Shown: positions 9,388 through 63,826 of the stretch, piece after piece
Layout: the number at the start of each line of letters is the position of its first letter
Numbering within the stretch: the stretch's first letter is position 1
Source: Candidatus Helarchaeota archaeon
GTDB taxonomy: Archaea > Asgardarchaeota > Lokiarchaeia > Helarchaeales > RDOG01
Direction of reading: 5' to 3'
Assembly: GCA_019058315.1 (NCBI GenBank)
Contig: JAHPZH010000002.1
Location: 320,001 to 384,000, forward strand
Length of the DNA: 64,000 nucleotides
The notes under the pieces: model-generated
What the model was told of the DNA's origin: nothing
Databases searched by the model: none
What the model saw: the letters and a program-made list of their open reading frames with translations, nothing else
Made by a program: the position numbers and the translations under genes

Positions 9388-9891
9388 TTATTTTTCATAA
9401 GCTAGTACAGCAAACTCGCCTACAAATTTCTTCTTTTTCTGGTATGCTTCTTCATCTGGTGAGACCACCTTTAATGCTTCATGAGGACACACTTTTACAC
9501 ACTGAGGTTCTTTATAACCTATATCAGTACACATCTCACATTTATGGATATAACCTTGGTCACCTACTCCAATAGCACCAAAAGGACAAACTTTCACGCA
9601 TGTACGGCAGTGAAAACATTTATTGTAATCTATTTTTATAATATGAGTTTTTGGATCTCGAGATATTGCTTCAACAGGACAAGCAGAAATCGGTAAGCAG
9701 TCTTCACACTGCATACAAAAAACTGGATAATTATATTTCCAGCTAAAGTCAATAACTTCAATCCTAGAATTTATCATATTTACGTCCCCTGAATTTACTA
9801 TACTACATGCTAACATACAAAGTTTGCAATCTGTACACTTTTCGGGATCCGCCCAAATTATATTCTTTTCTGCCATTTTTATCCTCCCCAA
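9388..9891 (-). CDS. 4x[4Fe-4S] electron-transfer subunit (AOR partner)
   Basis: CTDCKLCMLAC, CMQC…ACP, CFHCRTCVKVCP, CEMC…CVKVCP; overlaps the aor stop. Confidence 0.9.
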   Translation of the reverse strand: MGRIKMAEKNIIWADPEKCTDCKLCMLACSIVNSGDVNMINSRIEVIDFSWKYNYPVFCMQCEDCLPISACPVEAISRDPKTHIIKIDYNKCFHCRTCVKVCPFGAIGVGDQGYIHKCEMCTDIGYKEPQCVKVCPHEALKVVSPDEEAYQKKKKFVGEFAVLAYEK

Positions 9892-24005: not shown

Positions 24006-24847
24006 ATAATATCACTTAAAATACTGATTCCATCAGAAAATTTTACTGGAATCTCAAAATCAAAATCAATTCTTTTCTTCAAATCTAAAAATAATTTCGT
24101 TATAGGTGGAGGGATTAATTTATATTTATTTAAAAATTCAATATTTGAAAAAATCATATTTGGTTTATCGTTACCGATGATTTGTCCTTTATCTAAAACG
24201 ATGATACGTTCTGCTAATTCGCCTAAAATTTCTGCATTATGTGAGACTAAAATTATTGTAGTTCCTGATTGATGAATTTTTTTTAAGATATTGAAAATCC
24301 GGTTTGAATAAATAGGATCAAGATATGAAGTAGGTTCATCTAAAACTAATATTTGTGGTTTCATTATTAATATGGAAGCTAAAGATACTAATTGTTTTTG
24401 CCCACCTGATAGTGCTGTAGTATCTCTATTAATTAATTCAGTAATGCCAATTTCTTCTAGAATTATATTTAACCTTGTAGACATTTCTTTTTTAGGAATA
24501 GCTAAATTTTCCAACCCAAAAACAATCTCACTTTCTACATCAGGAGAAAAGATTTGGAAGTCTGGATTTTGAAAGAGAAATCCTACTTTGTCTGCAAAAT
24601 CTTGAATTTCATAATCAAGTGTATTATTACTAAGAACTTCTACTGATCCCTCGAAATCTCCTTTAAAAAAATGAGGAACTAATCCATTTAATAAATATAT
24701 TAATGTAGATTTTCCAGAACCAGATTCTCCCATAACTCCAATAAATTCCCCTTCATTAATTTCAAGATTAATATTTACTAAATTCAAAATTGGTGATGTT
24801 GCATATCTAAAATTGACATTTTTTAATTTTATTATTTTATATACCAT
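23996..24847 (-). CDS. ecfA: ECF transporter ATPase
   Basis: GESGSGKST, FQNPD, LSGGQ, LDEPT. Confidence 0.92.
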   Translation of the reverse strand: MVYKIIKLKNVNFRYATSPILNLVNINLEINEGEFIGVMGESGSGKSTLIYLLNGLVPHFFKGDFEGSVEVLSNNTLDYEIQDFADKVGFLFQNPDFQIFSPDVESEIVFGLENLAIPKKEMSTRLNIILEEIGITELINRDTTALSGGQKQLVSLASILIMKPQILVLDEPTSYLDPIYSNRIFNILKKIHQSGTTIILVSHNAEILGELAERIIVLDKGQIIGNDKPNMIFSNIEFLNKYKLIPPPITKLFLDLKKRIDFDFEIPVKFSDGISILSDIICR

Positions 24848-45616: not shown

Positions 45617-46828
45617 TTATATTATAAGTTCATTAACTAATTCTACAATGTCCTTAAATACTAATTTTGATCCGCTTTCTTTAATTGCATCCATTAGATT
45701 ACGTTGACAGAATGGACATGATGAAACTAAAATTTCCGCACCAGTGTCTTCAGCTTCTTTTATTCGGTCGATTGCAGTTTCTAAAGCCATATCTTTAAAT
45801 GCAGCCTTCACACCACCACCAGCACCGCAGCACCAAGCATTTTCCTGATTTCTTACCATTTCAACAAGCTTCAGTCCAGGAATGGCTTTTAAAATCCTTC
45901 TAGGCTGTTTATAAAGACCTCTACGCCTCGGCCTTGAATCGGACATTATACCTCTACCGATATGACAAGGGTCGTGGTAAGTAACCGTCTTATTTAATTC
46001 CTTAAGTTTTATCTTTCCATCTTTAATCAGTCTGTCTAGAAACTGTGTTATATGTATCAATTCAATATCTAATTTCTCTCCCAATAACTCAGGATAGTCA
46101 ACTAAAATAGTTCGATAACAACCTGCACAAGAAAAAATAAGCTTTTTTATACCTGCTTTTTTTATAGCTTCCATATTCTTTTTTGCTAATTCCATTGCTT
46201 GCTTTTGCATACCAGTTCGTAATAACGGACTTCCACAACAAATTTCTTCAGAACCAAGGATACGAAAGGGAGTATTTGTTTTATTTAAAATTTCTACAGT
46301 ATCTTTTGCAAGCTCTTTTTCTCTATAAGCCGATGTACATCCCACAAAATATGCAAGTTCTGCATTTGGGTCAATTTTTACATCTTTTGATAGCCAATCA
46401 AATCGTTGTCCATGTGGGTCTCCATAAGGGTTATTATTTTCAGCAGTACTCTTTGCAAAACCTAGATGTTGGGGCATAGGTCCCCATTCCATTTCTGCTA
46501 GCTTAGTCCTTAATGCTTCAATTATAGCAACATTATCCATACCTTTGAATTCTTTACAAGTAAGTGCACATGCACCGCAAGTGGTGCAAGCCCAAACAAG
46601 CTCTTTTAATGCTTCTGATGGTTCTTTTATTTCACCCTCGATGATAGCTCTCGCAATTTCCATACGTCCAACTGCATAATATGAGATAAAACCAAATTTT
46701 TTACCGCTTGGGCAACATTCTAGCCATTCATCTAGTGTCCAGTAATTAAATTGGTTACAGCCCATACAATGACCGCATGTTATAACATCATCTCTATATT
46801 CATCTAATTTTTTAACTTTTATTGTCAT
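45617..46828 (-). CDS. HdrD/GlcF-like Fe-S oxidoreductase with two CCG domains
   Basis: CTTCGACALTC, FVGC, ICCG, SCAGC, YHDPC, CCGAGGG, SCPFC. Confidence 0.9.
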   Translation of the reverse strand: MTIKVKKLDEYRDDVITCGHCMGCNQFNYWTLDEWLECCPSGKKFGFISYYAVGRMEIARAIIEGEIKEPSEALKELVWACTTCGACALTCKEFKGMDNVAIIEALRTKLAEMEWGPMPQHLGFAKSTAENNNPYGDPHGQRFDWLSKDVKIDPNAELAYFVGCTSAYREKELAKDTVEILNKTNTPFRILGSEEICCGSPLLRTGMQKQAMELAKKNMEAIKKAGIKKLIFSCAGCYRTILVDYPELLGEKLDIELIHITQFLDRLIKDGKIKLKELNKTVTYHDPCHIGRGIMSDSRPRRRGLYKQPRRILKAIPGLKLVEMVRNQENAWCCGAGGGVKAAFKDMALETAIDRIKEAEDTGAEILVSSCPFCQRNLMDAIKESGSKLVFKDIVELVNELII

Positions 46829-46829
46829 T

Positions 46830-48290
46830 TTACCAAGTCAACTCCTTTTCCTCTGGAAATACTTTTCCTGGGTTCATTATTTCATTTGGATCAATTAACT
46901 TCATGATCTTGTGCCAAATTTCACCGTAAGTTCCTAATTCGTTGATTATCAATTTCATAGGATTTAAGAACGGTCTGAACCAGCCATAGATATGATATTC
47001 CTTAGTAATTAATTTTTTCAAAACGGCGTAATGGAAATTCTTGACCATTTCAACAGATTTCGGGTCTGCGCTAGTATAAGGGACTTCTGCCTCATAGTAG
47101 CAAGCTTGACCCCAAAAACCCGCAATAGGGGCATTTAATAAATCGACATTTTTTGCTTCGTATCCTGCTTTCACTCCAAGTTCTTTCATCATAGGTACAT
47201 ATTTGGGATATTGATATAAAGGACCTAAGAAAGCTAAAGCATGATAAGAACCCTCTCTTAAGAACCCAAAGATGTTACGAGGATATTTAAATTCCCTTGC
47301 TTGTTCTTCTGGAAGGGGAATGGCATTTGCCTTGTTTAAAGGCGATGATGTTTTATTTATAATCTCAAGTGCTAATTCTTTTTTGGCATCAACGATTTTT
47401 TGATGCCCTTCAATTACAATTGGAATTGTCCATTCTGGAAATGATCCACGCATCGACTCTAGGTCTTTTCTTGATCTTGCAAACAATTTAATTATGGTAT
47501 ATTGTGGTAAAATCCACAAAAGTGCTGGTATTTTATTCCACATGAGTTGTGGGACGGGTTTGATAGCTTCTTCGATTGAATTAAAACCAATACCTATAAA
47601 GGCTTCTGCTTCAGGGAGTGGGTAGAGTTTAACAGTCATTTCAGTGCATATTGCCATACTACCAGGCATACTTTGAAAGAGTCCTACAAAATCTGGGCTA
47701 CATGTGAATCTAAAGTGAGGTGGTGCATTAGGAAAAGCTACGGCACCTGTCTTCAAAATTCTGCCATCTGGAAGGACGAACTCAGCAGAACAGACGTGAT
47801 CAATACCATCTCCAGCATTTGTATGATAGACACCTCTTAATAAGTAGTTTGCAAGCAATGAGCCTGTTGCAGGAGCACCGGGAATACATGGACGCATACC
47901 ATATTTCCGAACTGCGATAGCCACTTGTCCATGAGTCACTCCTGGCTGAATGGTGGCTGTCATCATATCATGATTTATTTCAAGAATCTTGTTCATTCTT
48001 CTCATATCAAGCAAAATACTTCCATCTTTAGCTGGTGTACATAATCCTCTTACGTTTACACCGCGACTTAAAGGAACTACAGGAATCTTATTTTGATTAG
48101 CGAATTTTACTATTTCTTGAATTTCTTCTGTTGAAATTGGACGTACTATGACCGCAGGACGCTTTGGTACTACAAAAGGCCAATGCTGATCTCTGCTATA
48201 AGGTATTAACACTGCTTCTTCGTCTGAAACATGTTGATCTCCGACAATTTTTACTAAATTATCAACTAAACTTGCCAAATTTATACACAA
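46830..48290 (-). CDS. FAD-binding oxidoreductase (GlcD/D-lactate dehydrogenase family)
   Basis: YSRD…P..IVRP.STEEIQ…LDMRRMNKI…QPGVT…DPNEIMNPGK. Confidence 0.88.
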   Translation of the reverse strand: MCINLASLVDNLVKIVGDQHVSDEEAVLIPYSRDQHWPFVVPKRPAVIVRPISTEEIQEIVKFANQNKIPVVPLSRGVNVRGLCTPAKDGSILLDMRRMNKILEINHDMMTATIQPGVTHGQVAIAVRKYGMRPCIPGAPATGSLLANYLLRGVYHTNAGDGIDHVCSAEFVLPDGRILKTGAVAFPNAPPHFRFTCSPDFVGLFQSMPGSMAICTEMTVKLYPLPEAEAFIGIGFNSIEEAIKPVPQLMWNKIPALLWILPQYTIIKLFARSRKDLESMRGSFPEWTIPIVIEGHQKIVDAKKELALEIINKTSSPLNKANAIPLPEEQAREFKYPRNIFGFLREGSYHALAFLGPLYQYPKYVPMMKELGVKAGYEAKNVDLLNAPIAGFWGQACYYEAEVPYTSADPKSVEMVKNFHYAVLKKLITKEYHIYGWFRPFLNPMKLIINELGTYGEIWHKIMKLIDPNEIMNPGKVFPEEKELTW

Positions 48291-48382: not shown

Positions 48383-48401
48383 AATGTCGAAATTCGATAT
48401 T
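48383..48401. promoter_or_regulatory. Palindromic operator copy 1 (AATGTC-N7-GATATT)
   Basis: Lies between the divergent glcD-hdrD operon and padR; same arms and spacing as the sites at 53289 and 56261. Confidence 0.55.
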
Positions 48402-48422: not shown

Positions 48423-49256
48423 GTGTTAATTATGTTTAAAAAAAAGCACAAAAGAGCACCAGTCAATAATTTTCAACTACAAATCCTAAGATTATTAAGA
48501 TATAGACCCATGTATGGGTATGAAATTTTAAATATATTCGAACAAAAAGGGTGGAGACCAAGTACAGGGACGTTATACCCTGCCTTAAAACAATTGGAAA
48601 AAAAAGAATTTATAGAATCATATAAAACTGAAGATCAAATACGTGGAGCCAACCCACGCACTAATTATAAATTAACAAAAAAAGGATTCGATTATGTCCA
48701 GACTACTTTTAATATTGATATAAGGCATCCTGAGCTCTATATTGAACCATTTATAGAATTACAGAATATGTATCTCAATGAAATATTTCGAGCCAAAGCT
48801 CTAGTGCTTGATTTTTTAAATTTCATTAATCCAGAAAATGTATTTAAAACCATGGCGGCTGGAAAAGTTCCTTCAAATATTGAATTTAAGAAAGTATACG
48901 ATTTTAACCTTGAGAATCCAAAATCTAAACTTTATGATTATATCGTATTATTTCTACCATTTTCATTTACTTTTCAAGATTTTTATAGTAATCCTGCTCG
49001 AAACCACCTAAAAGTTTTAAAAGATGTTAAATTAGCATTGAAACCAGATGGAGGCATTTTAATTATAGATATTGAATGGACTAAACATGCTCTTGTAGAT
49101 GTTTTAAGTTTTATGGCTACGGGTGAAGTAATGGAAATGGCTTACACAGAAGAACAAATAAAAACACTTTTAACAAATTCTGGATATGTTAACATTAATA
49201 TATTGAAGAAACAACGAGGAATAATAATAATATTGGCTGATAATAAATCTAATTAA
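48423..49256 (+). CDS. PadR-family transcriptional regulator with C-terminal methyltransferase-like domain
   Basis: IL.LL…PMYGYEI…PSTGTLYPALKQLE…Y.LT.KG; C-terminal YDYIV…LKPDGGILIID. Confidence 0.88.
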   Translation: MLIMFKKKHKRAPVNNFQLQILRLLRYRPMYGYEILNIFEQKGWRPSTGTLYPALKQLEKKEFIESYKTEDQIRGANPRTNYKLTKKGFDYVQTTFNIDIRHPELYIEPFIELQNMYLNEIFRAKALVLDFLNFINPENVFKTMAAGKVPSNIEFKKVYDFNLENPKSKLYDYIVLFLPFSFTFQDFYSNPARNHLKVLKDVKLALKPDGGILIIDIEWTKHALVDVLSFMATGEVMEMAYTEEQIKTLLTNSGYVNINILKKQRGIIIILADNKSN

Positions 49257-50916: not shown

Positions 50917-51714
50917 ATGCAAATCAATTTCGAATATGGGGTTTTTTTCACGCTGAATAAAATAACTGGCTTTTCAATTTTTACAGATCCGTTGAATCTT
51001 TTCCAATTGCTAATATTATTGTCTGCAATGATATTTGGGATTTATGTTCTACATATTATATGGAAAGAATATAAAAGAACGAATAGTACCAATTCATTAA
51101 TCTTCTACGTTGCCGGAGTAATTATGTTAATTTCCGGTATTAGCATAACAACTGCAAAATTATGTTATGCAACGTTCGGGTGGCCTGAAATTGGAAGAAT
51201 ATTTGTTGGAATAAGCTGGGGCATAGCTATTTCAGGAATGATCTTTTATAATATATTTGCTTTACGTTCCACATTTCCAAAAAGGGTTAATGTATTAACT
51301 TCAATTATTATAGCAATATCATTTCTTTGTATATTAGTTCTGAATTATGCTATTTATATAGAACCGCCATTAGTATACACTGATCCAATTGATTTTGAAG
51401 ATCGATTCAGCTTAATAGTTTTATTGGTAATTTATTGCACTTTTATACCTGTTTCATTACTTCCTCCTTTGGTTTTTTCCTATTATTCAATAAAAATAAG
51501 AAATGAAGATAGAGCAAAAAGTAATTTGGCAATTTTCTTTGTAATAGGACTTCTTTGTATAGCTCTGGGTGTAATAAATGAGATAGGGCTTATTTATATC
51601 TTTATATTAGAAGTTATTTTCCGGTTCTTTATCTTGGCATATCCTATAGTGTTTTATTTTATCTTTGCTATGCCTGATTGGTTCAGAGAAAAACTTGGAT
51701 TAAAAAAAGAGTAA
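50917..51714 (+). CDS. Multi-pass (~7 TM) membrane protein
   Basis: About seven hydrophobic segments, C-terminal MPDWF. Confidence 0.75.
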   Translation: MQINFEYGVFFTLNKITGFSIFTDPLNLFQLLILLSAMIFGIYVLHIIWKEYKRTNSTNSLIFYVAGVIMLISGISITTAKLCYATFGWPEIGRIFVGISWGIAISGMIFYNIFALRSTFPKRVNVLTSIIIAISFLCILVLNYAIYIEPPLVYTDPIDFEDRFSLIVLLVIYCTFIPVSLLPPLVFSYYSIKIRNEDRAKSNLAIFFVIGLLCIALGVINEIGLIYIFILEVIFRFFILAYPIVFYFIFAMPDWFREKLGLKKE

Positions 51715-51892: not shown

Positions 51893-53185
51893 ATGACAGA
51901 AAAGGTAGATCATTATCCTATGTGGAAAAATTTAGGTCTTGATCTTGAAAAACATGATCAATTATTAGCAATATTGCCTGATATTTACAAAAAAATTTAT
52001 ATCGAGACTCAAAAAAATCGTCCCGACATGAGTTTCTGGGACTTTGTTGTCGGAGATATACATGGAATTAGAATCAAAGAATTAAAAGAAGCAAAAGAAA
52101 AAGGTCAAAAAATTCTAGGTACATTTTGCCTTTATGTTCCAGATGAATTAATATTTGCAGTTAATGCAATTTCGGTAGGGCTTTGTGGGGGAACGAATTT
52201 CTCTAATTATGCTGCAGAAGGAATAGTTCCACCAAACCTTTGTCCATTAATAAAATCTGCCTTAGGTTTTGCTCTAGGAAATATTTGTCCCTATTTCAAT
52301 TCTCTAAACTTATTGGTTGGAGAAACAACATGTGATGGAAAGAAAAAAGCTTGGGAAGTTATGGAAAAATATTTCCCTTGTGAGTTATATGTTGTGGAAA
52401 TTCCCCAATGCAAAGACCGACCACAAGCAAGAGAGCATTGGATTGCAGAACTAAAAGCATTAGTTAAAAAGTTGGAAAATCTGACTAGTAATAAACTTAC
52501 GTTTGAGAATCTAAAAGCGGCAATGGAAAAAATAGAAAATAAAAGAAATCAAATTAGAAGAGTTTATCAAGCAAGAAAAGCCGATCCTCCTCCTATATCT
52601 GGAAAAGACGCCCTTTTAGTATCACAAGTTGCGTTCTATGATGATCCCGATAGAGAAATTCAAATGGTTGGGAAGCTTGCAGATGAATTGGAAAAGAGAA
52701 TAAGAGATGGGGTTGGTGTAGTTAAAAAAAGTACTAAAAGAATTTTGATTTCTGGAACTCCTATGGCGATACCAAACTGGAAATTACATCAAATAATAGA
52801 AACTAGTGGGGCTATTGTGGTTTGCGAAGAAACTTGCACTGGAACAAGATATTTTGACGCTAAACTGGAAATTACTGGAAAAACGTTAGAAGGATTGATC
52901 GGAAATTTGGCTGAGAGGTATTTAAATATTAATTGTGCTTGTTTCACTCCTAATGAAGCAAGAACTGAGGATATAAAAAGACTTGTAAAAGAATACAAAG
53001 CCGATGGTGTAGTTCTATATTCATTATCATTCTGTCAGCCTTATATAATCGAATCAATCGCCATTGAAAAAAAATTAAAAGAAATAGGAATCCCAACAAT
53101 CTCAATTGAAACCGATTACTCAAGCGAAGATGAGGGACAATTAAAGACCCGAATAGAAGCATTCCTAGAAATGATTAAAAAATAA
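51893..53185 (+). CDS. Double-cubane cluster protein (DCCP; 2-hydroxyacyl-CoA dehydratase family)
   Basis: MW..LGLDLEKHD, IHG.RI.EL, GTFC, LCGG, LCPLIKS, CPYF, ETTCDGKKK, EETCTG, INCACF, FCQPY. Confidence 0.88.
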   Translation: MTEKVDHYPMWKNLGLDLEKHDQLLAILPDIYKKIYIETQKNRPDMSFWDFVVGDIHGIRIKELKEAKEKGQKILGTFCLYVPDELIFAVNAISVGLCGGTNFSNYAAEGIVPPNLCPLIKSALGFALGNICPYFNSLNLLVGETTCDGKKKAWEVMEKYFPCELYVVEIPQCKDRPQAREHWIAELKALVKKLENLTSNKLTFENLKAAMEKIENKRNQIRRVYQARKADPPPISGKDALLVSQVAFYDDPDREIQMVGKLADELEKRIRDGVGVVKKSTKRILISGTPMAIPNWKLHQIIETSGAIVVCEETCTGTRYFDAKLEITGKTLEGLIGNLAERYLNINCACFTPNEARTEDIKRLVKEYKADGVVLYSLSFCQPYIIESIAIEKKLKEIGIPTISIETDYSSEDEGQLKTRIEAFLEMIKK

Positions 53186-53288: not shown

Positions 53289-53309
53289 TTATATCTTAAT
53301 TTGACATAA
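53289..53309. promoter_or_regulatory. Palindromic operator copy 2 (TTATATC-N7-GACATAA)
   Basis: About 110 bp upstream of the first unknown paralogue. Confidence 0.6.
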
Positions 53310-53414: not shown

Positions 53415-54665
53415 GTGTTTTTATTGGCTTGGCATGAAAAGGTAAAAGAAATAAAAGAAAGAAGACTTAAGGAATTGGAAGGTGTTGATATAAAAAGTAT
53501 ACTAGCCGCTGGTGATAAAGAAATTTATAATACAATCCCAGATAGTGTATTTTCCAAACCTTATCTACCTTTATGTACACAAGTTTGGAAATTTTTTAAG
53601 TATATGGATTGGCATTACTTTGATAGTATCTATGCCGATTTTGCAGAAGCATGCCTTGATGAACTAGTTTTGCGGATGGAGGAAGCAATTGAGGTCTCTA
53701 AAGCTTACTCAGAAGGTAAATTGAAAGATCCTAAGAAAACAATATGTTATTGGATTTTACCACCAGTTCTAGTTGTCAGGGCAGATTTAATACAGGGTGC
53801 GATCAGGCTTGTGTATGGAAACTCGGCTGATATAACCTTCATGGGTGTCTCAGACTTCGATAAAGAAGTTCTTTTTGGAATAAACTTTCATTTCGAAAAT
53901 GGGCTTGCAACAAACTATTGGTATATGAAACCTGGTGATGAATTTCTCGATAAACGGCATATGAAACTGGGAACTAAACTTAAAGATTTGCCAAAAGAAA
54001 TACCCGACTTTCATGAAGCAGCAGGTAAAATCCGTGATATTTTATTAGATGTAAGAAATATTCAAGATCCTAATCATGCTCAATCTGCATACAATGTATG
54101 TTTATTTTTAATGTCAGCAGGTCCAAATAATGGTGTTTTTGTAAGTAATTTCGATGAATACAGCTTCATGTGGGAGGGAATTAACAGTTATAAATTGAAT
54201 GAGGAATGTAAAACTGACATTTTAAAAGACACTATCCAATTTTATGAGCCATGGCCACCAATTTTCCTTCAGCTTACCCGTTTAAAAAGAGATCTCTGGA
54301 TAAAACGGATTTCAGGTCTTCTAATTGACAAACAACTCTATTGTCAATACGTATTGAACAAGAAACTCTTTGATATTTTACCAGTAAAAGAAGTACTTGA
54401 AAAAGATTGGGAAGAAGGTGTTCCTACTCCCGCTCAAACTATTGCCCATGAATTCTCAGATTATAAAAATTGGCGATTTGGTTATAAATTACCAGAAGGA
54501 CCTCGTATTCACTATGAAGATTTCGGTTTATCTCTTAAAGAAGCTATGGGAGGTTTTTTAACAGATATAACTTGGCAAACTGAACCACCCTTTACAAGAG
54601 ATAATTTAATTTCCATTGGTCATGGATTAAATACAAAAATTATAAAAAAGGATGAAGAGACTTAA
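53415..54665 (+). CDS. Uncharacterised soluble protein, paralogue A (probable start TTG 53424)
   Basis: Aligns end to end with 54918..56084; no family recognised. Confidence 0.85.
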   Translation: MFLLAWHEKVKEIKERRLKELEGVDIKSILAAGDKEIYNTIPDSVFSKPYLPLCTQVWKFFKYMDWHYFDSIYADFAEACLDELVLRMEEAIEVSKAYSEGKLKDPKKTICYWILPPVLVVRADLIQGAIRLVYGNSADITFMGVSDFDKEVLFGINFHFENGLATNYWYMKPGDEFLDKRHMKLGTKLKDLPKEIPDFHEAAGKIRDILLDVRNIQDPNHAQSAYNVCLFLMSAGPNNGVFVSNFDEYSFMWEGINSYKLNEECKTDILKDTIQFYEPWPPIFLQLTRLKRDLWIKRISGLLIDKQLYCQYVLNKKLFDILPVKEVLEKDWEEGVPTPAQTIAHEFSDYKNWRFGYKLPEGPRIHYEDFGLSLKEAMGGFLTDITWQTEPPFTRDNLISIGHGLNTKIIKKDEET

Positions 54666-54917: not shown

Positions 54918-56084
54918 TTGACTCATACTTATGGAGAGATACCAGATGACGTTGTGACGAAACGTTTCGTTCCCTTGGCAGAAAATTTATATTCATTATT
55001 TCAGGAACTAGGTTGGGATTATTTCTATGAAGAATTTACAGATAAAGGCACTCAATTTTTCGAGAAAGTCCCAGATTTTTTAAGTGATAAATTTCAAAGG
55101 GCAGTAACGACAGCTAAAAAGGTTATAGACGGATCAATACCAACACCTGAGAATGTATTTACAACATTCTTCTTTCCCCCTGTGTTATATGTACGAACTG
55201 ATCTACAAATGGGCAGTACTAAACTTATCTATGGAAATTCGACTGACATTACATTTATTGTCATGAATGATATGAATTATAATTTGGAACTCTTAATAAA
55301 TGCACACATGGAGGATGGAATTCCAGTAGATTATTGGTTCATTAAAAGTGGTGACGAAGTCTTTGATAGAAGACATATGAAGCTTGGTTTTAGACTTGCA
55401 GAGATTCCTTCAAAAACAAAGGACTTTTTCAAAAGTGGGCTTCGTATATTGGATATTTTAAGAGATGTTAGAAATGAACGAAGTCCACAATGGTCCGATT
55501 CTGCATATTCCATGGCAATGAATTGGGCTGGTGGATCAACCAACATGTTCATGGAGTCATCAAGTTACAATGTACTCGGACAACTTTGGGATGGTGTAAA
55601 CGCTAAAAAGGAATATGGTATGCCCGATATGTACTTTGGATACATCCCTTACCCTCCGATATTGAAGATGCTACTATCAATGGGACGTCCAGAGTTCATG
55701 ATAAGAATTGAAGGTTTGCTAAGTCATAATCGCTTATTTATTCATGCATATGAACCTGAACACTATGAATTTATGAAATTCATCTCACCAGAAGCATTAG
55801 AATGGAGCTTTAGGAAAATGAAGGAAGAAGGTGTGCCAACTCCTAGACAGTCTTTAGGTTGCCATGTACCTAAATTAAAAGATAAAAAAACATATAAAAA
55901 TGAAGAGTTCGGATTTGTATACCCCGAAGGAACAAGAATAATGCCTTACGAATGGGGCCTAACAGATGATGAAGCATTCAGCGGAATTTATACCGATATT
56001 TCACATGAAACTCCGTCGGAACCATTTTATGGGAAGGAACATGTAGTCAATATAGGCGTCGGTAAAGACGTGAGACCAATTTAA
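54918..56084 (+). CDS. Uncharacterised soluble protein, paralogue B
   Basis: Shares PPVL.VR.DL..G…L.YGNS.DITF, YW…GDE..D.RHMKLG and EEGVPTP.Q with paralogue A. Confidence 0.85.
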   Translation: MTHTYGEIPDDVVTKRFVPLAENLYSLFQELGWDYFYEEFTDKGTQFFEKVPDFLSDKFQRAVTTAKKVIDGSIPTPENVFTTFFFPPVLYVRTDLQMGSTKLIYGNSTDITFIVMNDMNYNLELLINAHMEDGIPVDYWFIKSGDEVFDRRHMKLGFRLAEIPSKTKDFFKSGLRILDILRDVRNERSPQWSDSAYSMAMNWAGGSTNMFMESSSYNVLGQLWDGVNAKKEYGMPDMYFGYIPYPPILKMLLSMGRPEFMIRIEGLLSHNRLFIHAYEPEHYEFMKFISPEALEWSFRKMKEEGVPTPRQSLGCHVPKLKDKKTYKNEEFGFVYPEGTRIMPYEWGLTDDEAFSGIYTDISHETPSEPFYGKEHVVNIGVGKDVRPI

Positions 56085-56260: not shown

Positions 56261-56281
56261 TTATGTCTATATTTGACATAA
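56261..56281. promoter_or_regulatory. Palindromic operator copy 3 (perfect TTATGTC-N7-GACATAA)
   Basis: About 130 bp upstream of mcrA. Confidence 0.65.
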
Positions 56282-56413: not shown

Positions 56414-58213
56414 ATGTCAAAAGAAGGAAAAAAATCTGAGAAAACAATTCGAGAGATAGATTATGGCTATGATCTTTTCTCAATAGCAAAAAAATTTCTT
56501 CCAGTTGAACAGGAACGTGTTGTTTATAAGACAATGCAAAAGGTCTTTGGCGTAAATCCATTAGCTCCTAGAGACAACTCTATGTATCGCAGAGGTGGAT
56601 TTAAACAAAATAAAAGAAAAGTAGAATTCATGAAAGCTGCTAAAAAAATTGCCAAAGAGAGAGGAATTCCCATGTATAATCGTGCAGTCGGAATTCCACT
56701 TGGACAAAGAGCGTTAGAGCCATATCTAATATCTGGTACAGATACTTTTGTTGATTTTGATGATGTTCATCATGTTAATAACGCTGCCATCCAACAGATG
56801 GTAGATGATATTAAAAGAACCGTAATTATCAATCTTGATATTCCACATCGTGTTCTCCAAGTTAGAGCAGGAAAGGAGATTACACCTGAAACTGTAAATC
56901 TTTACTTAGAAACTATTCAGCACACCATGGCAGGAGGTGCTGTAGCCCAAGAGCATATGGCTGAAATAAATCCTGGATTAACATTTGATGGATATGCGAA
57001 GGTAATCACAGGAGATGATGAAATACGGGACATGCTCGACAAGAGATTTTTATTAGATATTGATAATTTATTCCATCCAAGTCGGGTTGAACAATTAAAA
57101 AGAGCAATTGGTAGCACAATGTTTTTACTTGCCCGAGTTCCAACCATAGCGGTTCGGATGGCAGATGGTGGAGTTGTATATCGATGGGCTGCAATGCAAT
57201 CTACTATGGCATTTGTTGCAAGTTACCGATTAACAGGAGAAAGCATTATCTCAGATTTAGCTTATGCTGCAAAAAGTGCACAGCTTGTCCAGATGGGTGA
57301 AAGAACGTGGTTTGCGAGAGCAAGGAGTCAAAATGAAATAGGTGGAATACCATTTGGCTATATGAATGACTTTATGCAATCAGATTCTCGACTTCCAGCA
57401 AAACCGTTCCTAAGGGTCATACATGAAGATGGCGTTGATGTGGCAAGAGAATATATAGGTGCATTAACAAAAGGCCTTGGTGCTATTGGGGCAGTTTTGA
57501 CTGAACAATATTGGTTAAGTTTTTATATGTCTGGAGGTATTGGATTTGCCACCACAGTTGCAAGCGCAGGATATTGTGGTAATGTATTAGAAGAATTCAC
57601 TGACCAAACTACGGAAATTCTTGCAAAATATGGCAAGGTGCTTAAAGTCAAACCAAATTGGGATACAGTCCGTTGGGTTATTGATCTTATTATACAATAT
57701 TGCATGGAGACCTATGAAAAATATCCATCATTGACCGAATATCATTGGGGTGGTGCACATAGAATATCAGTAATTGGGAACCTTTCAGCGACTGTAGCTT
57801 CTTTATTAACAGGCTCTTCAACTTTAGGCTGTATGGCTATGCATTATTCAATAGGTTTGTTAATGAAGGAAGGTTGGTTAAGAACGGGTTGGGCAGGTCA
57901 AGAAGTCCAAGATCACGTGGGTATCGCTTATCTTTGTAGTCCCAGAATAGAGGAAGGAGTCTTTCCAGAACTTAGAGGCATGAATTATCCTGTTGCAAGC
58001 TTTACTGCTGGTCATGCTAGCGGATATATTGGCGCTGCGGCAGGAACTGCTCTTCATAGGGGTCAACCTTGGTCAACTTCTCCTATAGTCAAAGCCGCAT
58101 TTGCAGATCCTCATTTAATATTTGATTTCGCAGAACCAAGGCTAGCAATTGCTAAAGCGTGTTTGAGAGAATTCAAACCCGCAGGTGAACGAGATCTAAT
58201 TATTCCAACATAA
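56414..58213 (+). CDS. mcrA: Alkyl/methyl-coenzyme M reductase alpha subunit, divergent ACR type
   Basis: GIPLGQR, HHVNNAAIQQM.DDI.RT, GGAVAQEHM, YMSGGIGF, ELRG.NYP, AFAD, PAGER. Confidence 0.97.
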   Translation: MSKEGKKSEKTIREIDYGYDLFSIAKKFLPVEQERVVYKTMQKVFGVNPLAPRDNSMYRRGGFKQNKRKVEFMKAAKKIAKERGIPMYNRAVGIPLGQRALEPYLISGTDTFVDFDDVHHVNNAAIQQMVDDIKRTVIINLDIPHRVLQVRAGKEITPETVNLYLETIQHTMAGGAVAQEHMAEINPGLTFDGYAKVITGDDEIRDMLDKRFLLDIDNLFHPSRVEQLKRAIGSTMFLLARVPTIAVRMADGGVVYRWAAMQSTMAFVASYRLTGESIISDLAYAAKSAQLVQMGERTWFARARSQNEIGGIPFGYMNDFMQSDSRLPAKPFLRVIHEDGVDVAREYIGALTKGLGAIGAVLTEQYWLSFYMSGGIGFATTVASAGYCGNVLEEFTDQTTEILAKYGKVLKVKPNWDTVRWVIDLIIQYCMETYEKYPSLTEYHWGGAHRISVIGNLSATVASLLTGSSTLGCMAMHYSIGLLMKEGWLRTGWAGQEVQDHVGIAYLCSPRIEEGVFPELRGMNYPVASFTAGHASGYIGAAAGTALHRGQPWSTSPIVKAAFADPHLIFDFAEPRLAIAKACLREFKPAGERDLIIPT

Positions 58214-58294
58214 TTTCAAAGTTTATTTAATCATTTTAATTTATTTAGCATAGAAATAACCTAGAAATGTGATTTAAAAAAAAGATGATAAAAA

Positions 58295-59896
58295 ATGGAA
58301 GATTTTATTGTTGTTAAAAACCTATTTAAAGAGTTTGAAAGAGGCTCCCCTGCTTATATTGATATAAGCTTTACAATTAAAGAAGGAGCCTCATTTGGTA
58401 TTTTGGGTAAGTCAGGATCTGGAAAAAGTGCTTTAATGCATGCACTTCGTGGCACTCCAGAATATAAACCGACGAAAGGAACAGTCATATATAGGATTTC
58501 TGCATGTCCTAATGATGATTGTCTTTATATCGATTACCCCTCATTAGCAAATTCAAGTTGCCCAAATTGCAACTCAACTTTGGAATTGAAAGAATTCGAT
58601 TTTTGGAAAGAGGCAGAAACTAACTCTCCCCTTTTTCGCGCACTTTATAATCGAATATCAATTATGTTGCAACGTACGTTCGCACTTTACGGAGAACTAC
58701 CCGTATTAGCAAATCTAACTGAGGCTCTAGAAAAAGCAGGCGTTCCTGAAAGACGAAGAGAGGGTAAAGCAGCATTATTACTATCAAAAGTTAATTTAAC
58801 ACACCGTTCAATGCATATTGCCCGTGACTTATCAGGAGGAGAAAAACAACGTGTAGTTTTCGCTATGAGTCTGGCGAAAAATCCACTTCTTTTCCTTGCA
58901 GATGAACCCACTGGAACACTTGATGTAATAACAAGTAAAAAAATCCATAAAACAATGAAGACGGCTGTTAATAAGGATAAACTTACGCTTATTGTGACTT
59001 CACATTGGCCACTTGCCGTTGAAGAATTAACATCAGAAGCAATATTATTAGAGGATGGAAAAATTACGATGCATGCTGATTCTTCTGAAGTGGCTAAGAA
59101 GTTTTTAAGTCAAGTAGAAAAAGTAGAGAGGACAAAAAGAGAGTTTAAAAATAAAATTATGAAAGTTGAGAATTGTATTAAACATTATTACACATTTGAT
59201 AGGGGAATTATTAGAGCTGTAGATGGTGTCTCTCTTGATATTTATGAAAATGAGATTTTTGGGCTTGTTGGTCTTTCAGGTTCTGGAAAAACAACTCTGT
59301 CCCTAATGATGTGTGGTTTGAAAGATATTACAATGGGAAAAATCTGGGTCAATATAGGGGATGAATGGGTCGATATGAGCATCCCAGGTCCATATGAACG
59401 TGGTAGAGCTACAAATTATATGGACATTCTTCACCAAGAATATGCTCTCTATCCTCATTTGATAGTTCTACAAAATCTAACTGGGGCAATAGAATATCCG
59501 ATTCCAGAGGAAATGAAAACCAAAAAAGCTTATGACTCATTAAAGGCAGTAAATTTCACAAATGATGAAATTGAAAATATTCTCTATAAATTTCCAGAAC
59601 AAATTAGTGAAGGAGAACGACACCGAGTTGCCATTTCTCGAATTTTAATAAAAGAACCGAAAATTTTGTTTTTTGATGAGGCAACTGGAACTGCAGACCC
59701 ATTAACTCGGATGGAAATAGTACGTTCAATAAAAAAATCCCGTGATGACCTTAATCAAACATATGTCATAATAAGTCATGATATTGATTTTGTCTTAGCT
59801 GCTTGTGATAGAGCAGCATTAATGAAAGATGGTCACGTTTTAAAAGTTGGAGAACCCGCGGAGATCATAGAATATTTTAAAGAGGTAGAGAAATAA
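58295..59896 (+). CDS. atwA: MCR system component A2 (double ABC ATPase with Zn site)
   Basis: GKSGSGKS, C.{4}C…CPNC, RISIMLQRTFALY, HIARDLSGGEKQR, WVDM..PG…RGRAT. Confidence 0.95.
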   Translation: MEDFIVVKNLFKEFERGSPAYIDISFTIKEGASFGILGKSGSGKSALMHALRGTPEYKPTKGTVIYRISACPNDDCLYIDYPSLANSSCPNCNSTLELKEFDFWKEAETNSPLFRALYNRISIMLQRTFALYGELPVLANLTEALEKAGVPERRREGKAALLLSKVNLTHRSMHIARDLSGGEKQRVVFAMSLAKNPLLFLADEPTGTLDVITSKKIHKTMKTAVNKDKLTLIVTSHWPLAVEELTSEAILLEDGKITMHADSSEVAKKFLSQVEKVERTKREFKNKIMKVENCIKHYYTFDRGIIRAVDGVSLDIYENEIFGLVGLSGSGKTTLSLMMCGLKDITMGKIWVNIGDEWVDMSIPGPYERGRATNYMDILHQEYALYPHLIVLQNLTGAIEYPIPEEMKTKKAYDSLKAVNFTNDEIENILYKFPEQISEGERHRVAISRILIKEPKILFFDEATGTADPLTRMEIVRSIKKSRDDLNQTYVIISHDIDFVLAACDRAALMKDGHVLKVGEPAEIIEYFKEVEK

Positions 59897-59897
59897 A

Positions 59898-60395
59898 ATG
59901 AAAGATTTAGATTCAGAACTGGAATATGAGTATAAAGAACCTTCAGGAAAATGGTGGGAAGAACTCGAATGGATTTTTCCTCCAGAAGAAGACCGAGAAC
60001 CCACATGTTATGAAATGGTTCAGAGTTTTATTATAAATAAAGTTGTTCCTTGTGCTAAGTGTGTGGAATTATCGGGACGGTTTTTACCTCGTGTAATTAC
60101 CATTGAAGCTGAACACCCGATTCGAGGAAATGAGTACTCACGAATAATTATAAGTCCAGTCGATGTAGCAGACGGAGCTCCAACAGTAGAACCCGACCTC
60201 TTAATCCATATTAAATATTACGACTTGTTAAGAGTATTAGATGGAGAATTAGATATAATGAAACCATTATTTTTTGGAGAAGGCTGGTTAATCGGTAATA
60301 CAACAACTGGTTTTGATTTGAAAGATTTAGTCGATGTAGCAAATGGAAAAGAATTAGTTGAGAGACCTAAAGCTTGGCCAATAGGTCACCCATAG
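59898..60395 (+). CDS. SCP2-like (sterol/lipid carrier) domain protein inside the ACR operon
   Basis: V.DG…EPDLLIHIKYYDLLRVLDGELDIMKPLFFGEGWLIGN matches the SCP2 C-terminal pattern also seen at 8877..9275. Confidence 0.62.
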   Translation: MKDLDSELEYEYKEPSGKWWEELEWIFPPEEDREPTCYEMVQSFIINKVVPCAKCVELSGRFLPRVITIEAEHPIRGNEYSRIIISPVDVADGAPTVEPDLLIHIKYYDLLRVLDGELDIMKPLFFGEGWLIGNTTTGFDLKDLVDVANGKELVERPKAWPIGHP

Positions 60396-60406
60396 GAGAG
60401 TTTAAT

Positions 60407-61801
60407 ATGATTAAAGATAAAGTTGACGTTTATAATGATGAGGGTGAATGCATAGGAGAAGATTTACCCATAAAAGCATTCTCTCCCTTATATAATCCGT
60501 ATATGGTAAAAGTTTATAATATGATCAAGAGAACCGCATTTATTTCACTAGAAAAATTAGAACAAAATATACGTAAAGGTCGTTTTGGTGAAATGACAAC
60601 CTTACGTCAGGACGAAATACAGATGCCTCAATTTGAACGGAAATGGAAGCTTGTTGATATGGGGCCTGAAATTGCGGAAAAAATGAATAAAATCATTTCT
60701 ATGGACGAAGGATTTAATGGTAAGGATGATGGTTCGAATGTAGATCTGATAGCGGGTGGTAAAATGCTAAGAGTATCCTTACCACAAAGAAGAATAGATA
60801 TTGCAGCTTCCATTGCCCCACTTTATACAATAACTGGGACTGCACTCGCTCAATCTCTTATTGATCTTCTTGATTTAAACCCAATGAATGATATTGATGG
60901 TTGTAATATAGTAAAAACGGCAATTTTTGGTCGTTTTCCACAAACCAGAGAATTTGGATCTTCATGTCCTATTTTTGCTTTTTGTAAACCTCCTCAATTG
61001 GAAGAAGGCATAGGAACTCTGTTCCGTGGTCTCATGATAAACCATATAGTTGCTTTGTCCAATTTTCGGACTTTCGATGCAGTAGCATTAGCAACTTTAT
61101 TAGAACAAGCAGGACAAACAGAGATGGGAAATGCTATAGGGTGGTATGAGCGCTATAATTTATTGACAACCGCATATCAAGGATTTAATGGAAATAACTT
61201 AGTGTTAGATTTAATTAAAGAATACGGTACTGATGGGACAGTTAGTGATGTTGTACATGGTCTAATTGAAAGATCTTTAAATGATGGGGTTATATATCCT
61301 AAAGGAGATAAATTCCCACACACTCAACCTTCTGGATATAAAATTTATTCAACTAAAGATTATCCGCTTTGGAATGCATATTCATGTGCTGGGTTGTTAG
61401 CTGCTGTTTGTGTAAATGTAGGTGCATCTCGTGCTGCACAAGGTTGTGGCGCAGTAATGTCTAGTTTTAGTGATATTCTTTCATTTGAAACTGGGGGTCT
61501 TCCAGATCCAGATGCTGGAAGGATTTTTGGGACTGCACTCGGTTTTACATTTTATACACATTCAATTTATGGTGGGGCTGGACCTGGGGCTTTTACGATG
61601 GACCATGTTATAACTCGCCATACTAGTGGCTTTTTTACACCATGTGTTGCTGCAGCGATGTGTCTAGATGCAGGAACCCAAATCTTTACTCCAAAATTGA
61701 CTTCTGGAAATTATTTTACGCTTCGAAAAGAAATACCACTGCTCACTGATGTTGTTGTTAAGACCACTGAGGCTGCAAAGGAGATAAAAAATAAATTTTA
61801 A
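60407..61801 (+). CDS. mcrB: Alkyl/methyl-coenzyme M reductase beta subunit
   Basis: DKVDVY, SPLYNP, KRT, EMGNAIG.YER, AYQG.N.NNLV, WNAY, HSIYGGAGPG, HVITRH, LDAGTQ; start ATG 60407 after AGGAG. Confidence 0.97.
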   Translation: MIKDKVDVYNDEGECIGEDLPIKAFSPLYNPYMVKVYNMIKRTAFISLEKLEQNIRKGRFGEMTTLRQDEIQMPQFERKWKLVDMGPEIAEKMNKIISMDEGFNGKDDGSNVDLIAGGKMLRVSLPQRRIDIAASIAPLYTITGTALAQSLIDLLDLNPMNDIDGCNIVKTAIFGRFPQTREFGSSCPIFAFCKPPQLEEGIGTLFRGLMINHIVALSNFRTFDAVALATLLEQAGQTEMGNAIGWYERYNLLTTAYQGFNGNNLVLDLIKEYGTDGTVSDVVHGLIERSLNDGVIYPKGDKFPHTQPSGYKIYSTKDYPLWNAYSCAGLLAAVCVNVGASRAAQGCGAVMSSFSDILSFETGGLPDPDAGRIFGTALGFTFYTHSIYGGAGPGAFTMDHVITRHTSGFFTPCVAAAMCLDAGTQIFTPKLTSGNYFTLRKEIPLLTDVVVKTTEAAKEIKNKF

Positions 61802-61811
61802 GGTGAAAATT

Positions 61812-62687
61812 ATGGAAGAAGATGTTTTTGCAGTTGCAGATATTGAAAAATTCAAGAGAAAGAAAAAGAAAGTAGAAAGAAAAGAAGTAGAGAAAAAAGT
61901 TGAAGTTATAGAGGGTAAATATGAACCTCAATTTTACCCAGGACAAGGTCCGGTATCGGAAAGAAGGCGAAAATTATTAAATAAAAATAAAAAGTTATTG
62001 AAATTACGAAGTATTCCAGATGATGATGTGGTTAAATTACTCGGACATCGTCTACCGGGCAGTTTATATCGTAGTATTCATCCCCCTCTAGACGAATTAA
62101 TCCAAGAATATGATCCTATTAAAATGCTTGTAAAACCTACCCCAGGAGCACGTGCAGGTGATCGTGTCCGCTTTGTCCAATTCACTGATAGTTTTTGGAG
62201 ACCTCCTTTTGCCCCTTGGTTAAGAGCAAGGTATTATTTCAATCGTCTACGAGGTGTGGATACCGTTATTTACTCGGGACGTGAAATTTTAGAAATGAGG
62301 GAACGTGATCTAGAGGCAGCCACAAAAATACTAATTGAAACAGAACTTTTCGATCCAGCTAGAACAGCTCTTAGAGGAATTACTGTTCATGGTAGTTCAT
62401 TGAGATTAGATACTGATGGATTAATGTTTGACGCTCGACGTCGATATGTATTGGATAAAGACGTTAATGAAGTTGTTTATATTAAAGATATGCATGCAAA
62501 GATGTTAGATAAACCTATCCCGGTAGGAAGACCTTTCAACGAAGATGAATTAGTTGAGTTTGACGTGACTTATAGATGGGATGCTTCGATGTATAAATCA
62601 CGTACTGAAATTTTAACAGTAATTAATAGAATTGCAAAAGGTAGATTATTAGCAGGTTTTAGACCAGAATTAGTAAATGATTTTTAA
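61812..62687 (+). CDS. mcrG: Alkyl/methyl-coenzyme M reductase gamma subunit with charged N-terminal extension
   Basis: YEPQFYPG, LGHR.PG, HPPL, GDRVR.VQF.DS, RGVD, SGR, RG.TVHG.SLRLD; ATG 61812 after AGGTGA (the ORF track uses GTG 61803). Confidence 0.96.
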   Translation: MEEDVFAVADIEKFKRKKKKVERKEVEKKVEVIEGKYEPQFYPGQGPVSERRRKLLNKNKKLLKLRSIPDDDVVKLLGHRLPGSLYRSIHPPLDELIQEYDPIKMLVKPTPGARAGDRVRFVQFTDSFWRPPFAPWLRARYYFNRLRGVDTVIYSGREILEMRERDLEAATKILIETELFDPARTALRGITVHGSSLRLDTDGLMFDARRRYVLDKDVNEVVYIKDMHAKMLDKPIPVGRPFNEDELVEFDVTYRWDASMYKSRTEILTVINRIAKGRLLAGFRPELVNDF

Positions 62688-62706
62688 TAAAAAGGATTGA
62701 AAATTT

Positions 62707-63570
62707 ATGACAGAAGAAATTGATGTTGAATTAACAGAAAAAATAAAAGAATTATGCCTGAAAGCAGGTGCAGACAAAGTAGGAATTGCAGATGCTGATA
62801 AAGCGGTAGGATCATCACAAGGTCATGCAAATCCAAGGGATATTCTCCCTAATGCGCGGTCAATAATTGTTTTAGCTTCAAAAATCCCCGATAGTGCCAT
62901 CGAATGTAAACATTCTGATGAATTAATCCACGCAAACTTTGTTGCCGTGCAACAAGCAATGAATATGGAACTTGTAAGAATAGGTTATAAACTCTCTCGA
63001 TTTTTAGAAAAATTAGGATATGATTCTATTCCAATTGCACCAGATATTCCTCGAGAAGAAAGTAGGAATATTTGGGTAGGAACTATATCTCATAAATATG
63101 TGGCACAACTCGCTGGTTTAGGTGAAATTGGTCTTGCGAACCTATTTCTTACACCTGAATGGGGTCCAAGAGTCAATTTATGTTGTATACTTACTGATGC
63201 ACCCCTACAACCAGATGGACCTAAATTAGTTGATAAAGTTTGTACAAAATGTAATAAATGTATAGAAGCATGTCCAACTAGAGCCTTAACTTCGAATAAT
63301 TATCCACCATTTAACTTCAATTTAAATCGGTGTCTATGGGCTACTCTTGGATTTTATCGGTTAACAAAAGTTGAGGAACCACCCGAAGACTGGATAGATG
63401 CAAAACCAAGCGCAAATATTGTTCTTCCCAAATATGAGGAAAAATACCCACAAATTCGCACTTTTGAAAATTGGGCTTCTAGATTGGGCGACTTTCCCCA
63501 ATGTATTGCATGTATGGCTGCATGTCCAATAGGAAAGGAGACTCATCAAAAAAGAATTGAGGGCGAATAA
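62707..63570 (+). CDS. Epoxyqueuosine reductase/reductive dehalogenase-like cobalamin- and 2x[4Fe-4S]-binding protein
   Basis: GADKVGIA, SHKYVAQLAGLGEIG, TPEWGPRV…LTDA, CTKCNKCIEACP, C…CIACMAACP. Confidence 0.88.
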   Translation: MTEEIDVELTEKIKELCLKAGADKVGIADADKAVGSSQGHANPRDILPNARSIIVLASKIPDSAIECKHSDELIHANFVAVQQAMNMELVRIGYKLSRFLEKLGYDSIPIAPDIPREESRNIWVGTISHKYVAQLAGLGEIGLANLFLTPEWGPRVNLCCILTDAPLQPDGPKLVDKVCTKCNKCIEACPTRALTSNNYPPFNFNLNRCLWATLGFYRLTKVEEPPEDWIDAKPSANIVLPKYEEKYPQIRTFENWASRLGDFPQCIACMAACPIGKETHQKRIEGE

Positions 63571-63604
63571 TCTCTTTTATTTTTGTTAAAAAAATAAAAA
63601 AAAA

Positions 63605-63826
63605 TTAAGATTCATGATCTCTTGGCATATAGTATATTACCGCCATTAAAATAAGGATTATCGTGAAAAAAACCAAAACAAACATCACATTAAGTGCATT
63701 TGGTGGAACTAAGTATGATGGGGTCATGCTTAATTGACAGAAATTATAAAAAACTAGTCCTATCATTCCTCCTATCAAAGTCATAAAGACAAAAACCGAT
63801 TTTTGATGATTTTTCAAGGACATCAT
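63605..63826 (-). CDS. Small 2-TM membrane protein
   Basis: 73 aa, two hydrophobic segments. Confidence 0.55.
   Translation of the reverse strand: MMSLKNHQKSVFVFMTLIGGMIGLVFYNFCQLSMTPSYLVPPNALNVMFVLVFFTIILILMAVIYYMPRDHES

Follow-up and report, generated by a model that had tools for sequence, protein, structure and literature searches.

A Helarchaeales alkyl-coenzyme M reductase gene cluster with genes for an SCP2-fold companion protein and a QueG/RdhA-like protein

A cluster of methyl-coenzyme M reductase-like genes in an Asgard archaeon, having further genes embedded among those for the enzyme subunits, raises the question of which type of reductase is encoded and whether the embedded genes belong to it. 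Such a cluster is found in the 64,000-nucleotide stretch of Candidatus Helarchaeota DNA analysed here, which we call the window (G000:C5:320001-384000 in our numbering of genomes and contigs) and which derives from a 12-contig genome of 5.8 Mb with a GC content of about 30%, a completeness of 94% and a contamination of 6.6%. Six open reading frames (ORFs) on the same strand, at window positions 56414-63570, encode the three subunits of an enzyme that the sequence evidence supports as an alkane-type alkyl-coenzyme M reductase (ACR) of the Helarchaeales and not a methane-type methyl-coenzyme M reductase (MCR), together with the ATPase AtwA, a 165-residue protein with a predicted SCP2 fold and a 287-residue QueG/RdhA-like protein. 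The SCP2-fold protein is a dedicated companion of one ACR clade, with which it has been inherited or transferred jointly across phyla, and the QueG-like protein is a marker of ACR-bearing lineages that is recurrently linked to atwA. The six genes are as follows.

56414-58213, plus strand: acrA, McrA-like alpha subunit (599 residues), from Pfam and NCBIfam matches and the McrA tree.
58295-59896, plus strand: atwA, component A2, ACR-type ABC ATPase (533 residues), from TIGR03269 and Walker motifs.
59898-60395, plus strand: gene for the ACR-associated SCP2-fold protein (165 residues), from fold, family and ACR adjacency.
60407-61801 (longest ORF from TTG 60374), plus strand: acrB, McrB-like beta subunit, from PF02241 (3.6e-86) and PF02783 (2.4e-30).
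61812-62687 (longest ORF from GTG 61803), plus strand: acrG, McrG-like gamma subunit, from PF02240 (4e-91).
62707-63570, plus strand: gene for a QueG/RdhA-superfamily Fe-S protein (287 residues), a putative corrinoid protein, from profile, fold and cysteine motifs.

An earlier note, made from the letters alone, had given the order as mcrA-atwA-orf165-mcrB-mcrG-queG-like with gaps of 81, 1, 11, 10 and 19 bp, and this agrees with the ORFs, their identities and their ATG starts, the gaps being obtained with ATG 60407, which follows GGAGAG, as the start of acrB and ATG 61812 as that of acrG; using the longest-ORF starts instead gives intergenic values of 81, 1, -22, 1 and 19 bp. The same note had described mcrC and mcrD as missing from the cluster, and a Pfam and NCBIfam search of the cluster ORFs indeed found neither of them, both being encoded on contig C11 of the same genome. 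With regard to the soundness of the assembly, contigs of four sediment metagenomes from a different study span, with an identity of 90-99%, four of the five junctions (atwA/165-residue gene, 165-residue gene/acrB, acrB/acrG and acrG/QueG-like gene), and the GC content is even across the window. As independent contigs bridge these four junctions, and as the same gene order recurs in Hel_GB_A and in the genomes G001 and G002, a chimeric contig, which the earlier note had raised as a concern, was ruled out.

The AcrA protein carries the MCR_alpha_N and MCR_alpha domains over its full length (PF02745, 3.9e-101; PF02249, 4e-24), and its score of 560 bits for the methane-type equivalog TIGR03256 is under the cut-off of 767.75, which marks it as divergent and fits an ACR; AcrG, with 279 bits for TIGR03259, exceeds the cut-off of 172. 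The identity of AcrA was 76% to the protein of Hel_GB_A, 60% to that of Bathyarchaeota BA2, 57% to that of Hadarchaeota and 48% to one Syntrophoarchaeum ACR, and 43-47% to canonical MCRs. In a maximum likelihood tree of 38 hand-picked McrA rows, with no named rows of Methanoliparia or of the ethane oxidiser Ethanoperedens, the canonical MCRs formed a clade with 100/100 support and the window McrA was located outside it, in a 17-row clade (support 99/98) together with Helarchaeales, Bathyarchaeota BA1/BA2 and Hadarchaeota, so that the phylogeny bears out the assignment to an Asgard ACR made in the earlier note. All of the ACRs having an SCP2-like neighbour were found to one side of a branch 0.4 in length and with 100/100 support, with the three Syntrophoarchaeum ACRs that have no such neighbour on the other side, together with the MCRs. 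The side holding the window enzyme corresponds to what the literature calls the putative long-chain-alkane clade (Seitz 2019, PMC6478937; Zhao and Biddle 2021, PMC9723726; Benito Merino 2024, PMC10811742). Hexadecane-grown Ca. Cerberiarchaeum, a Hadarchaeon, forms hexadecyl-coenzyme M, and its Acr was placed with those of Bathyarchaeia, Helarchaeales and Methanoliparia (PMC10811742), while a highly expressed acrA of Alkanophaga, located apart from its acrBG, was assigned to the putative long-chain group (PMC10322722).

McrA homologues were present in all seven species genomes of the order to which the window belongs, two of these being based on the public records of Helarchaeota Hel_GB_A and Hel_GB_B. 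The window genome carries three ACR clusters, in three different gene orders, and three ACR variants per Helarchaeota genome have been reported previously (PMC9723726). The window ACR thus shares with those of Helarchaeota, Bathyarchaeota BA1/BA2 and Hadarchaeota the same three subunits, an McrA identity of 57-76% and the same tree clade, but the published accounts of those enzymes that were consulted give mcrABG only, whereas the window adds the genes for the A2 ATPase, the SCP2-fold protein and the QueG-like protein. Some public labels were discordant, with near-identical proteins (P0177 and P0186, the nearest McrA) labelled 'Hodarchaeota' in NCBI and a contig of the Helarchaeales order (L059, G002:C15) titled 'Candidatus Deferrimicrobium sp.', which we read as labelling noise.

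The earlier note had proposed that the 165-residue protein is a lipid carrier, and at the level of fold this was right, as judged from the predicted model and its structural matches. The model (pLDDT 79.7, built on 16 homologues) gave as its best 46 Foldseek matches in the PDB solely SCP2 proteins or SCP2-like domains of alkylsulfatases, with probability 1.0, E down to 4e-5 and TM scores of 0.5-0.67 depending on the target. The predicted fold is thus that of the SCP2 domains (PF02036), as in UbiJ-SCP2 and the C-terminal domain of the alkylsulfatase SdsA1; such domains hold long alkyl chains, and SdsA1 solved with 1-decane-sulfonic acid was among the matches. Neighbours of the protein in the ESM Atlas carry PF02036, and its distant family members in BA2 and at L070 have weak PF02036 matches. 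Only 19 clusters of the family were recovered by an exhaustive hidden Markov model search of 1.84 billion representatives, with named members from Helarchaeota, Bathyarchaeota BA2 and Ca. Alkanophaga. Invariant residues in the family are W19, E34-P35, P74, P87, G133 and D143, and beyond the SCP2 core it has a conserved Trp-rich N-terminal extension and a C-terminal one with the motif R-P-x-x-W-P-x-G-H-P. In having these extensions of its own, no sequence match to PF02036 in the window protein, and a restriction to ACR loci, the family differs from SCP2 proteins proper. The possibility that the protein is a diverged McrD was rejected on the basis of its SCP2 fold and of a true McrD elsewhere in the genome. 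An ordinary SCP2 protein, distinct from the ACR-linked family, is also encoded in the window at 8877-9275 on the minus strand (PF02036, 2.3e-10).

The comparison of operons across ACR clades that the earlier note had suggested revealed the SCP2-like gene as a companion in Helarchaeales, BA2, Hadarchaeota, Syntrophoarchaeum and Alkanophaga. About 25 loci, belonging to five or more lineages of class or phylum rank, have it beside ACR genes, and every context that was opened for the family was an ACR locus. Within the window genome it lies beside the ACR genes in all three clusters, and among the further Helarchaeales clusters having a contig that reaches past acrA, such a neighbour was seen in 11 of 12. 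Outside this order, adjacency was found in BA2, two Hadarchaeota, two Syntrophoarchaeum, Alkanophaga and three further contigs. The Alkanophaga locus has the order B-G-SCP2, which fits the reported location of acrA apart from acrBG in that organism (PMC10322722). Syntrophoarchaeum, having four McrA genes, has one SCP2-like gene, and this is located beside the long McrA of about 625 residues.

The common ACR order is B-G-A-SCP2, with atwA as the next gene in G002, G006 and L069 and, convergently, in a Hadarchaeon, and A-SCP2-B-G is seen in a Hadesarchaeon. The window instead has A-atwA-SCP2-B-G, an order that recurs in Hel_GB_A and G001 with a gene of about 400 codons between acrA and atwA, and again in G002 on a contig starting inside that gene. 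With this recurrence in relatives having a gene inserted at that site, the window order is a conserved variant in which the acrA/atwA boundary is the variable joint, that is, a lineage-specific rearrangement of B-G-A-SCP2(-atwA) that several genera of Helarchaeales have in fixed form in their type-I cluster. The order had been called non-canonical in the earlier note, and it is so even among ACRs, but it is not unique to this genome.

The 287-residue protein scored below the NCBIfam cut-offs both for reductive dehalogenase (TIGR02486, 69.6 bits with a cut-off of 160.35) and for QueG (TIGR00276, 54.7 bits with a cut-off of 200). Its family profile matched RdhA 8q4h at 3e-25 and QueG 5d08 at 1e-22, with the QueG alignment spanning only residues 32-279 of the 437-residue chain, such that the C-terminal part of QueG is not covered. 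The predicted model (pLDDT 86) had QueG, PceA and NpRdhA as top fold matches, with a Foldseek E of 1e-11 to QueG. A first Fe-S motif, CxxCxxCxxxCP, is found at residues 179-190, and a second includes C266, C269 and C273, invariant in the family. The fold and these two [4Fe-4S] motifs support membership in the QueG/RdhA superfamily, at that level; the core fold and Fe-S motifs match those of QueG and RdhA/PceA/NpRdhA, which have cobalamin and two [4Fe-4S] clusters, but the protein is shorter than either QueG or RdhA. Being under both cut-offs and without the QueG C-terminal part, it represents a separate subfamily. No twin-arginine signal was visible in the protein.

Close homologues (36-93% identity) were found in Helarchaeota, 'Lokiarchaeota', Hadesarchaea, Syntrophoarchaeum and BA2. 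The family profile scored 340 bits or more in all seven Helarchaeales genomes, BA2, two Syntrophoarchaeum and one Hadesarchaeon, and 150 other Asgard genomes had no such orthologue (best score 200 bits), although this distribution is a pattern rather than proof and the profile was built from sequences of ACR lineages, which score high by construction. The gene lies directly 3' of atwA in BA2, where the encoded protein is 47% identical to that of the window, and in the Hadesarchaeon; in G001 and G002, of two related genera, it is encoded on the opposite strand, 1-3 kb beyond acrG, and solely in the window genome is it co-directional with and abutting acrG. On contigs L045 and L046 it is not ACR-linked, and several distant paralogues are present in the window genome. 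In BA2, the Hadesarchaeon, Syntrophoarchaeum and contigs L045/L046, the gene after the QueG-like one encodes a double zinc-ribbon protein of about 73 residues. Such a gene was looked for and not found after position 63570 in the window; the homologue of this genome is at C2:124651-124851, about 1 kb from Mmp3, while in G006 the zinc-ribbon gene is immediately next to acrB, and Hel_GB_B and G005 have it about 1.1 kb upstream of that gene.

AtwA scored 672 bits for TIGR03269 (cut-off 517) and has two nucleotide-binding domains, with Walker A motifs at residues 38 and 326 and Walker B motifs at 199 and 457. The zinc-binding motif of A2 has been given as CXXC-X12-CXXC (bioRxiv 10.64898/2026.03.18.712670); in the window protein the four cysteines are kept in a CX4C-X12-CX2C variant with a two-residue insert that is common to the orthologues of Hel_GB_A and G001, whereas the second A2 copy of the genome has the standard spacing. 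The MCR activation complex of methanogens consists of A2, McrC, Mmp7, Mmp17 and Mmp3 (PMC12176620). The window genome encodes, outside the cluster, McrD (C11:299259-299567), an McrC-like protein (C11:299736-300050), an Mmp7/McrC-family protein (C11:401255-402067), Mmp17, Mmp3 and the second A2. Compared with canonical mcrBDCGA, the window cluster thus encodes an enzyme of the same superfamily with an A2 of the same NCBIfam family, in a genome also having McrC/Mmp7, Mmp17, Mmp3 and McrD, but it is without the mcrC and mcrD that the canonical operon has between mcrB and mcrG. In addition, A2 is here encoded inside the reductase cluster, whereas in methanogens it belongs to a separate activation operon, and the two extra families (SCP2-fold and QueG-like) have no counterpart in methanogen operons.

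We consider it probable that the whole is best explained as an ACR cluster of the putative long-chain clade having an SCP2 carrier and a QueG-like activation partner. AcrA, AcrB and AcrG would then, from their family membership, make up the F430 enzyme by which an alkane and the heterodisulfide of coenzymes M and B (CoM-S-S-CoB) are converted to alkyl-CoM and CoB-SH, and the ACR-type A2 AtwA would drive the reductive activation of F430 together with the McrC/Mmp7, Mmp17 and Mmp3 proteins encoded elsewhere. The most economical reading of the SCP2-fold protein is that it may bind the hydrophobic chain as a carrier, either delivering the poorly soluble alkane or taking up the detergent-like, or surfactant-like, alkyl-CoM. 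For the QueG/RdhA-like protein the best guess, given its repeated pairing with atwA, is a supply of low-potential electrons for activation, in which it would serve as a corrinoid/[4Fe-4S] redox partner of A2.

Several observations weigh against this explanation. The 165-residue protein gave no Pfam or NCBIfam match, PF02036 included, even at E<=10, and the binding of a hydrophobic ligand, as well as the carrier role, is putative and suggested by a predicted model. A single Helarchaeales cluster among those seen (G001:C383; L029, 2700-3447) has a PIN-domain gene and a 101-codon ORF after acrA and no SCP2-like gene. The 'B12/Fe-S enzyme' of the earlier note holds for the superfamily by profile and fold, but corrinoid binding itself is presumed from homology. 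To the construction of the QueG-like profile, as given above, can be added that the gene is not adjacent to ACR genes in Syntrophoarchaeum or in Hel_GB_A, where it is on another contig, and that a second close copy in the window genome lies away from the ACR genes, beside that of a tRNA intron endonuclease. A single transcript of the six genes is suggested by their spacing, no RNA run was found to contain this DNA, and the AT-rich 81-bp spacer between acrA and atwA may carry signals of its own, as relatives have an extra gene at that site. Finally, we know of no Helarchaeales culture in which alkane oxidation has been shown.

The main rival to a carrier is that the SCP2-fold protein acts as an assembly or cofactor chaperone similar to McrD, delivering an F430 variant or holding apo-AcrA open. 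Its gene is usually located directly after acrA, the Trp-rich start and the R-P-x-x-W-P-x-G-H-P end look like docking elements, the SCP2-fold protein UbiJ, a chaperone of a cofactor intermediate, was among the fold matches, and mcrD is outside the cluster. A separate McrD is nevertheless kept in the genome, the fold search gave SCP2 proteins and not the McrD chains of the PDB, and both the restriction to the putative long-chain clade and the absence at three of the four Syntrophoarchaeum ACRs fit a role related to chain length better; we hold a chaperone to be unlikely, although by no means negligible. For the QueG/RdhA-like protein, a catabolic function could be envisioned instead of activation, with cob(I)alamin attacking the thioether of alkyl-CoM, freeing CoM-SH and passing the alkyl group on, as the first step from alkyl-CoM towards acyl-CoA. 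The RdhA/QueG fold is established to employ cob(I)alamin in reductive C-X or C-O chemistry, and such a function would suit a gene that closes the window ACR cluster, has orthologues confined to ACR lineages within the genomes searched and, in the Hadesarchaeon, is found near genes for HdrD-like, GlcD-like, CoA-transferase and aldehyde:ferredoxin oxidoreductase proteins, as well as the fact that conversion of alkyl-CoM to acyl-CoA has been called unknown (PMC10811742). Its closest and most repeated neighbour is, however, atwA and not a catabolic gene. A more distant relative (33% identity) was furthermore named from Nezhaarchaeales, which we take to be methane-type, and we regard the catabolic function as doubtful, with a rather low probability.

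That both accessory genes are mere passengers with housekeeping lipid, RNA or cofactor roles, moved beside the ACR genes by rearrangement, seems very improbable. Helarchaeales ACR clusters are often rearranged, as seen in the three orders of this genome, which also holds a generic SCP2 gene, distant QueG-like paralogues and the close copy beside the tRNA intron endonuclease. Passengers would however hardly account for the SCP2-like adjacency in some 25 loci of at least five lineages, for the occurrence of that family nowhere else among the 1.84e9 representatives, within the contexts that were checked, or for a QueG-like subfamily that tracks the presence of ACR and not taxonomy. Archaea moreover use archaeosine and do not make queuosine, and the 287-residue protein is without the C-terminal, tRNA-binding part of QueG. 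A methane-type MCR, or a chimeric contig, was tested and rejected, with practically no probability left to it: a phmmer search of the PDB did score methane MCRs higher (up to 499 bits) than the sole solved ethyl-coenzyme M reductase (405 bits), but the fully supported separation in the tree, the TIGR03256 score under its cut-off and the higher identity to BA2 than to canonical MCRs argue against the former, and the four bridged junctions, the synteny with Hel_GB_A, G001 and G002 and the uniform GC content against the latter. An ACR cluster of the putative long-chain clade with a carrier and an activation partner remains our preferred explanation.

The surroundings of the cluster contain the following further features.

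53415-54665 and 54918-56084, plus strand: genes for two paralogues of the same family, 416 and 388 residues, directly upstream of acrA.
56263-56279, no strand assigned: 17-bp palindrome ATGTC-N7-GACAT, a candidate operator, 151 bp upstream of acrA.
63571-63605, plus strand: T-rich and then A-rich tract, a possible archaeal terminator as read from the sequence.

The genes for the 416- and 388-residue proteins are likely to be part of the same island as the ACR cluster. Their family, of about 400 residues, has more than 30 copies in the genome by tblastn; in Hel_GB_A and G001 an orthologue of the 416-residue gene is what lies between acrA and atwA, and homologues are found beside ACR genes in the C3 cluster of the window genome as well as, with weak but significant similarity, in BA2, the Hadesarchaeon, two Syntrophoarchaeum and at L070. 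The family gave no Pfam match (13 members) and no PDB match by sequence or profile, and a feature search of the ESM Atlas returned only clusters without names and with low recognition. One could propose that the SCP2-fold, QueG/RdhA-like and 400-residue families jointly make up the missing machinery of archaeal long-chain alkane oxidation, in which the carrier would hold the alkyl chain, the cob(I)alamin enzyme would split the C-S bond of alkyl-CoM and the chain would be passed on in the direction of acyl-CoA; the association of all three families with a single ACR clade in different phyla would thereby be accounted for, but we find it quite improbable.

The AT-rich spacer upstream of acrA is 330 bp in length and includes the palindrome, the exact form of which occurs once. 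The degenerate form ATRTC-N7-GAYAT has four sites in the window, where 0.32 would be expected, and 46 in the 5.8-Mb genome. Three of the four are intergenic, at 48384-48400 (before padR, a gene at 48423-49256), 53291-53307 (before the 416-residue gene) and 56263-56279 (before acrA), the fourth being at 24803-24819, and this suggests that the palindromes mark a local PadR-type regulon to which PadR might bind. A pair of HdrD-like (CCG) and GlcD-like (FAD_binding_4) genes is located at 45617-48290 on the minus strand, and further instances of this pairing are found close to the C11 ACR cluster and to the second atwA (on C7), as well as in BA2 and at the Hadesarchaeon locus. A double-cubane-cluster reductase is encoded at 51893-53185 (NF040772, 474 bits), beside the gene for a 265-residue protein (50917-51714) that matched no Pfam family and has about 30 paralogues in this genome. 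The gene following the cluster is that of a convergent GH31 hydrolase. In the third ACR cluster of the genome (L005, G000:C11), the gene at 9003-11408 on the minus strand, between acrG and a convergent acrA, encodes an 801-residue protein in which a CoA-disulfide-reductase-like domain is fused to TusA and two rhodanese domains.

To our knowledge, ACRs provide the sole route by which archaea oxidise non-methane alkanes anaerobically, and a question in the field is by what means long chains of very low solubility arrive at the buried F430 site. The enzyme as such is known, and it is the conserved accessory package that represents a new variant, with candidate functions that can be tested. We found no description of an SCP2-fold or QueG-like companion in the ACR and MCR literature, as far as it could be searched (with subscription papers and supplements outside that search), so that the embedded accessory genes stand as the undescribed package that the earlier note had taken them for. 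The cluster names two candidates: a carrier-fold protein confined to the putative long-chain ACR clade and a corrinoid-type redox protein tied to the activating ATPase. Both of these accessory genes are testable in existing Alkanophaga and Hadarchaeota enrichments, and they are candidates to add in heterologous ACR expression. For Asgard biology, the analysis confirms a large and nearly complete Helarchaeales genome having three full ACR sets together with activation genes.

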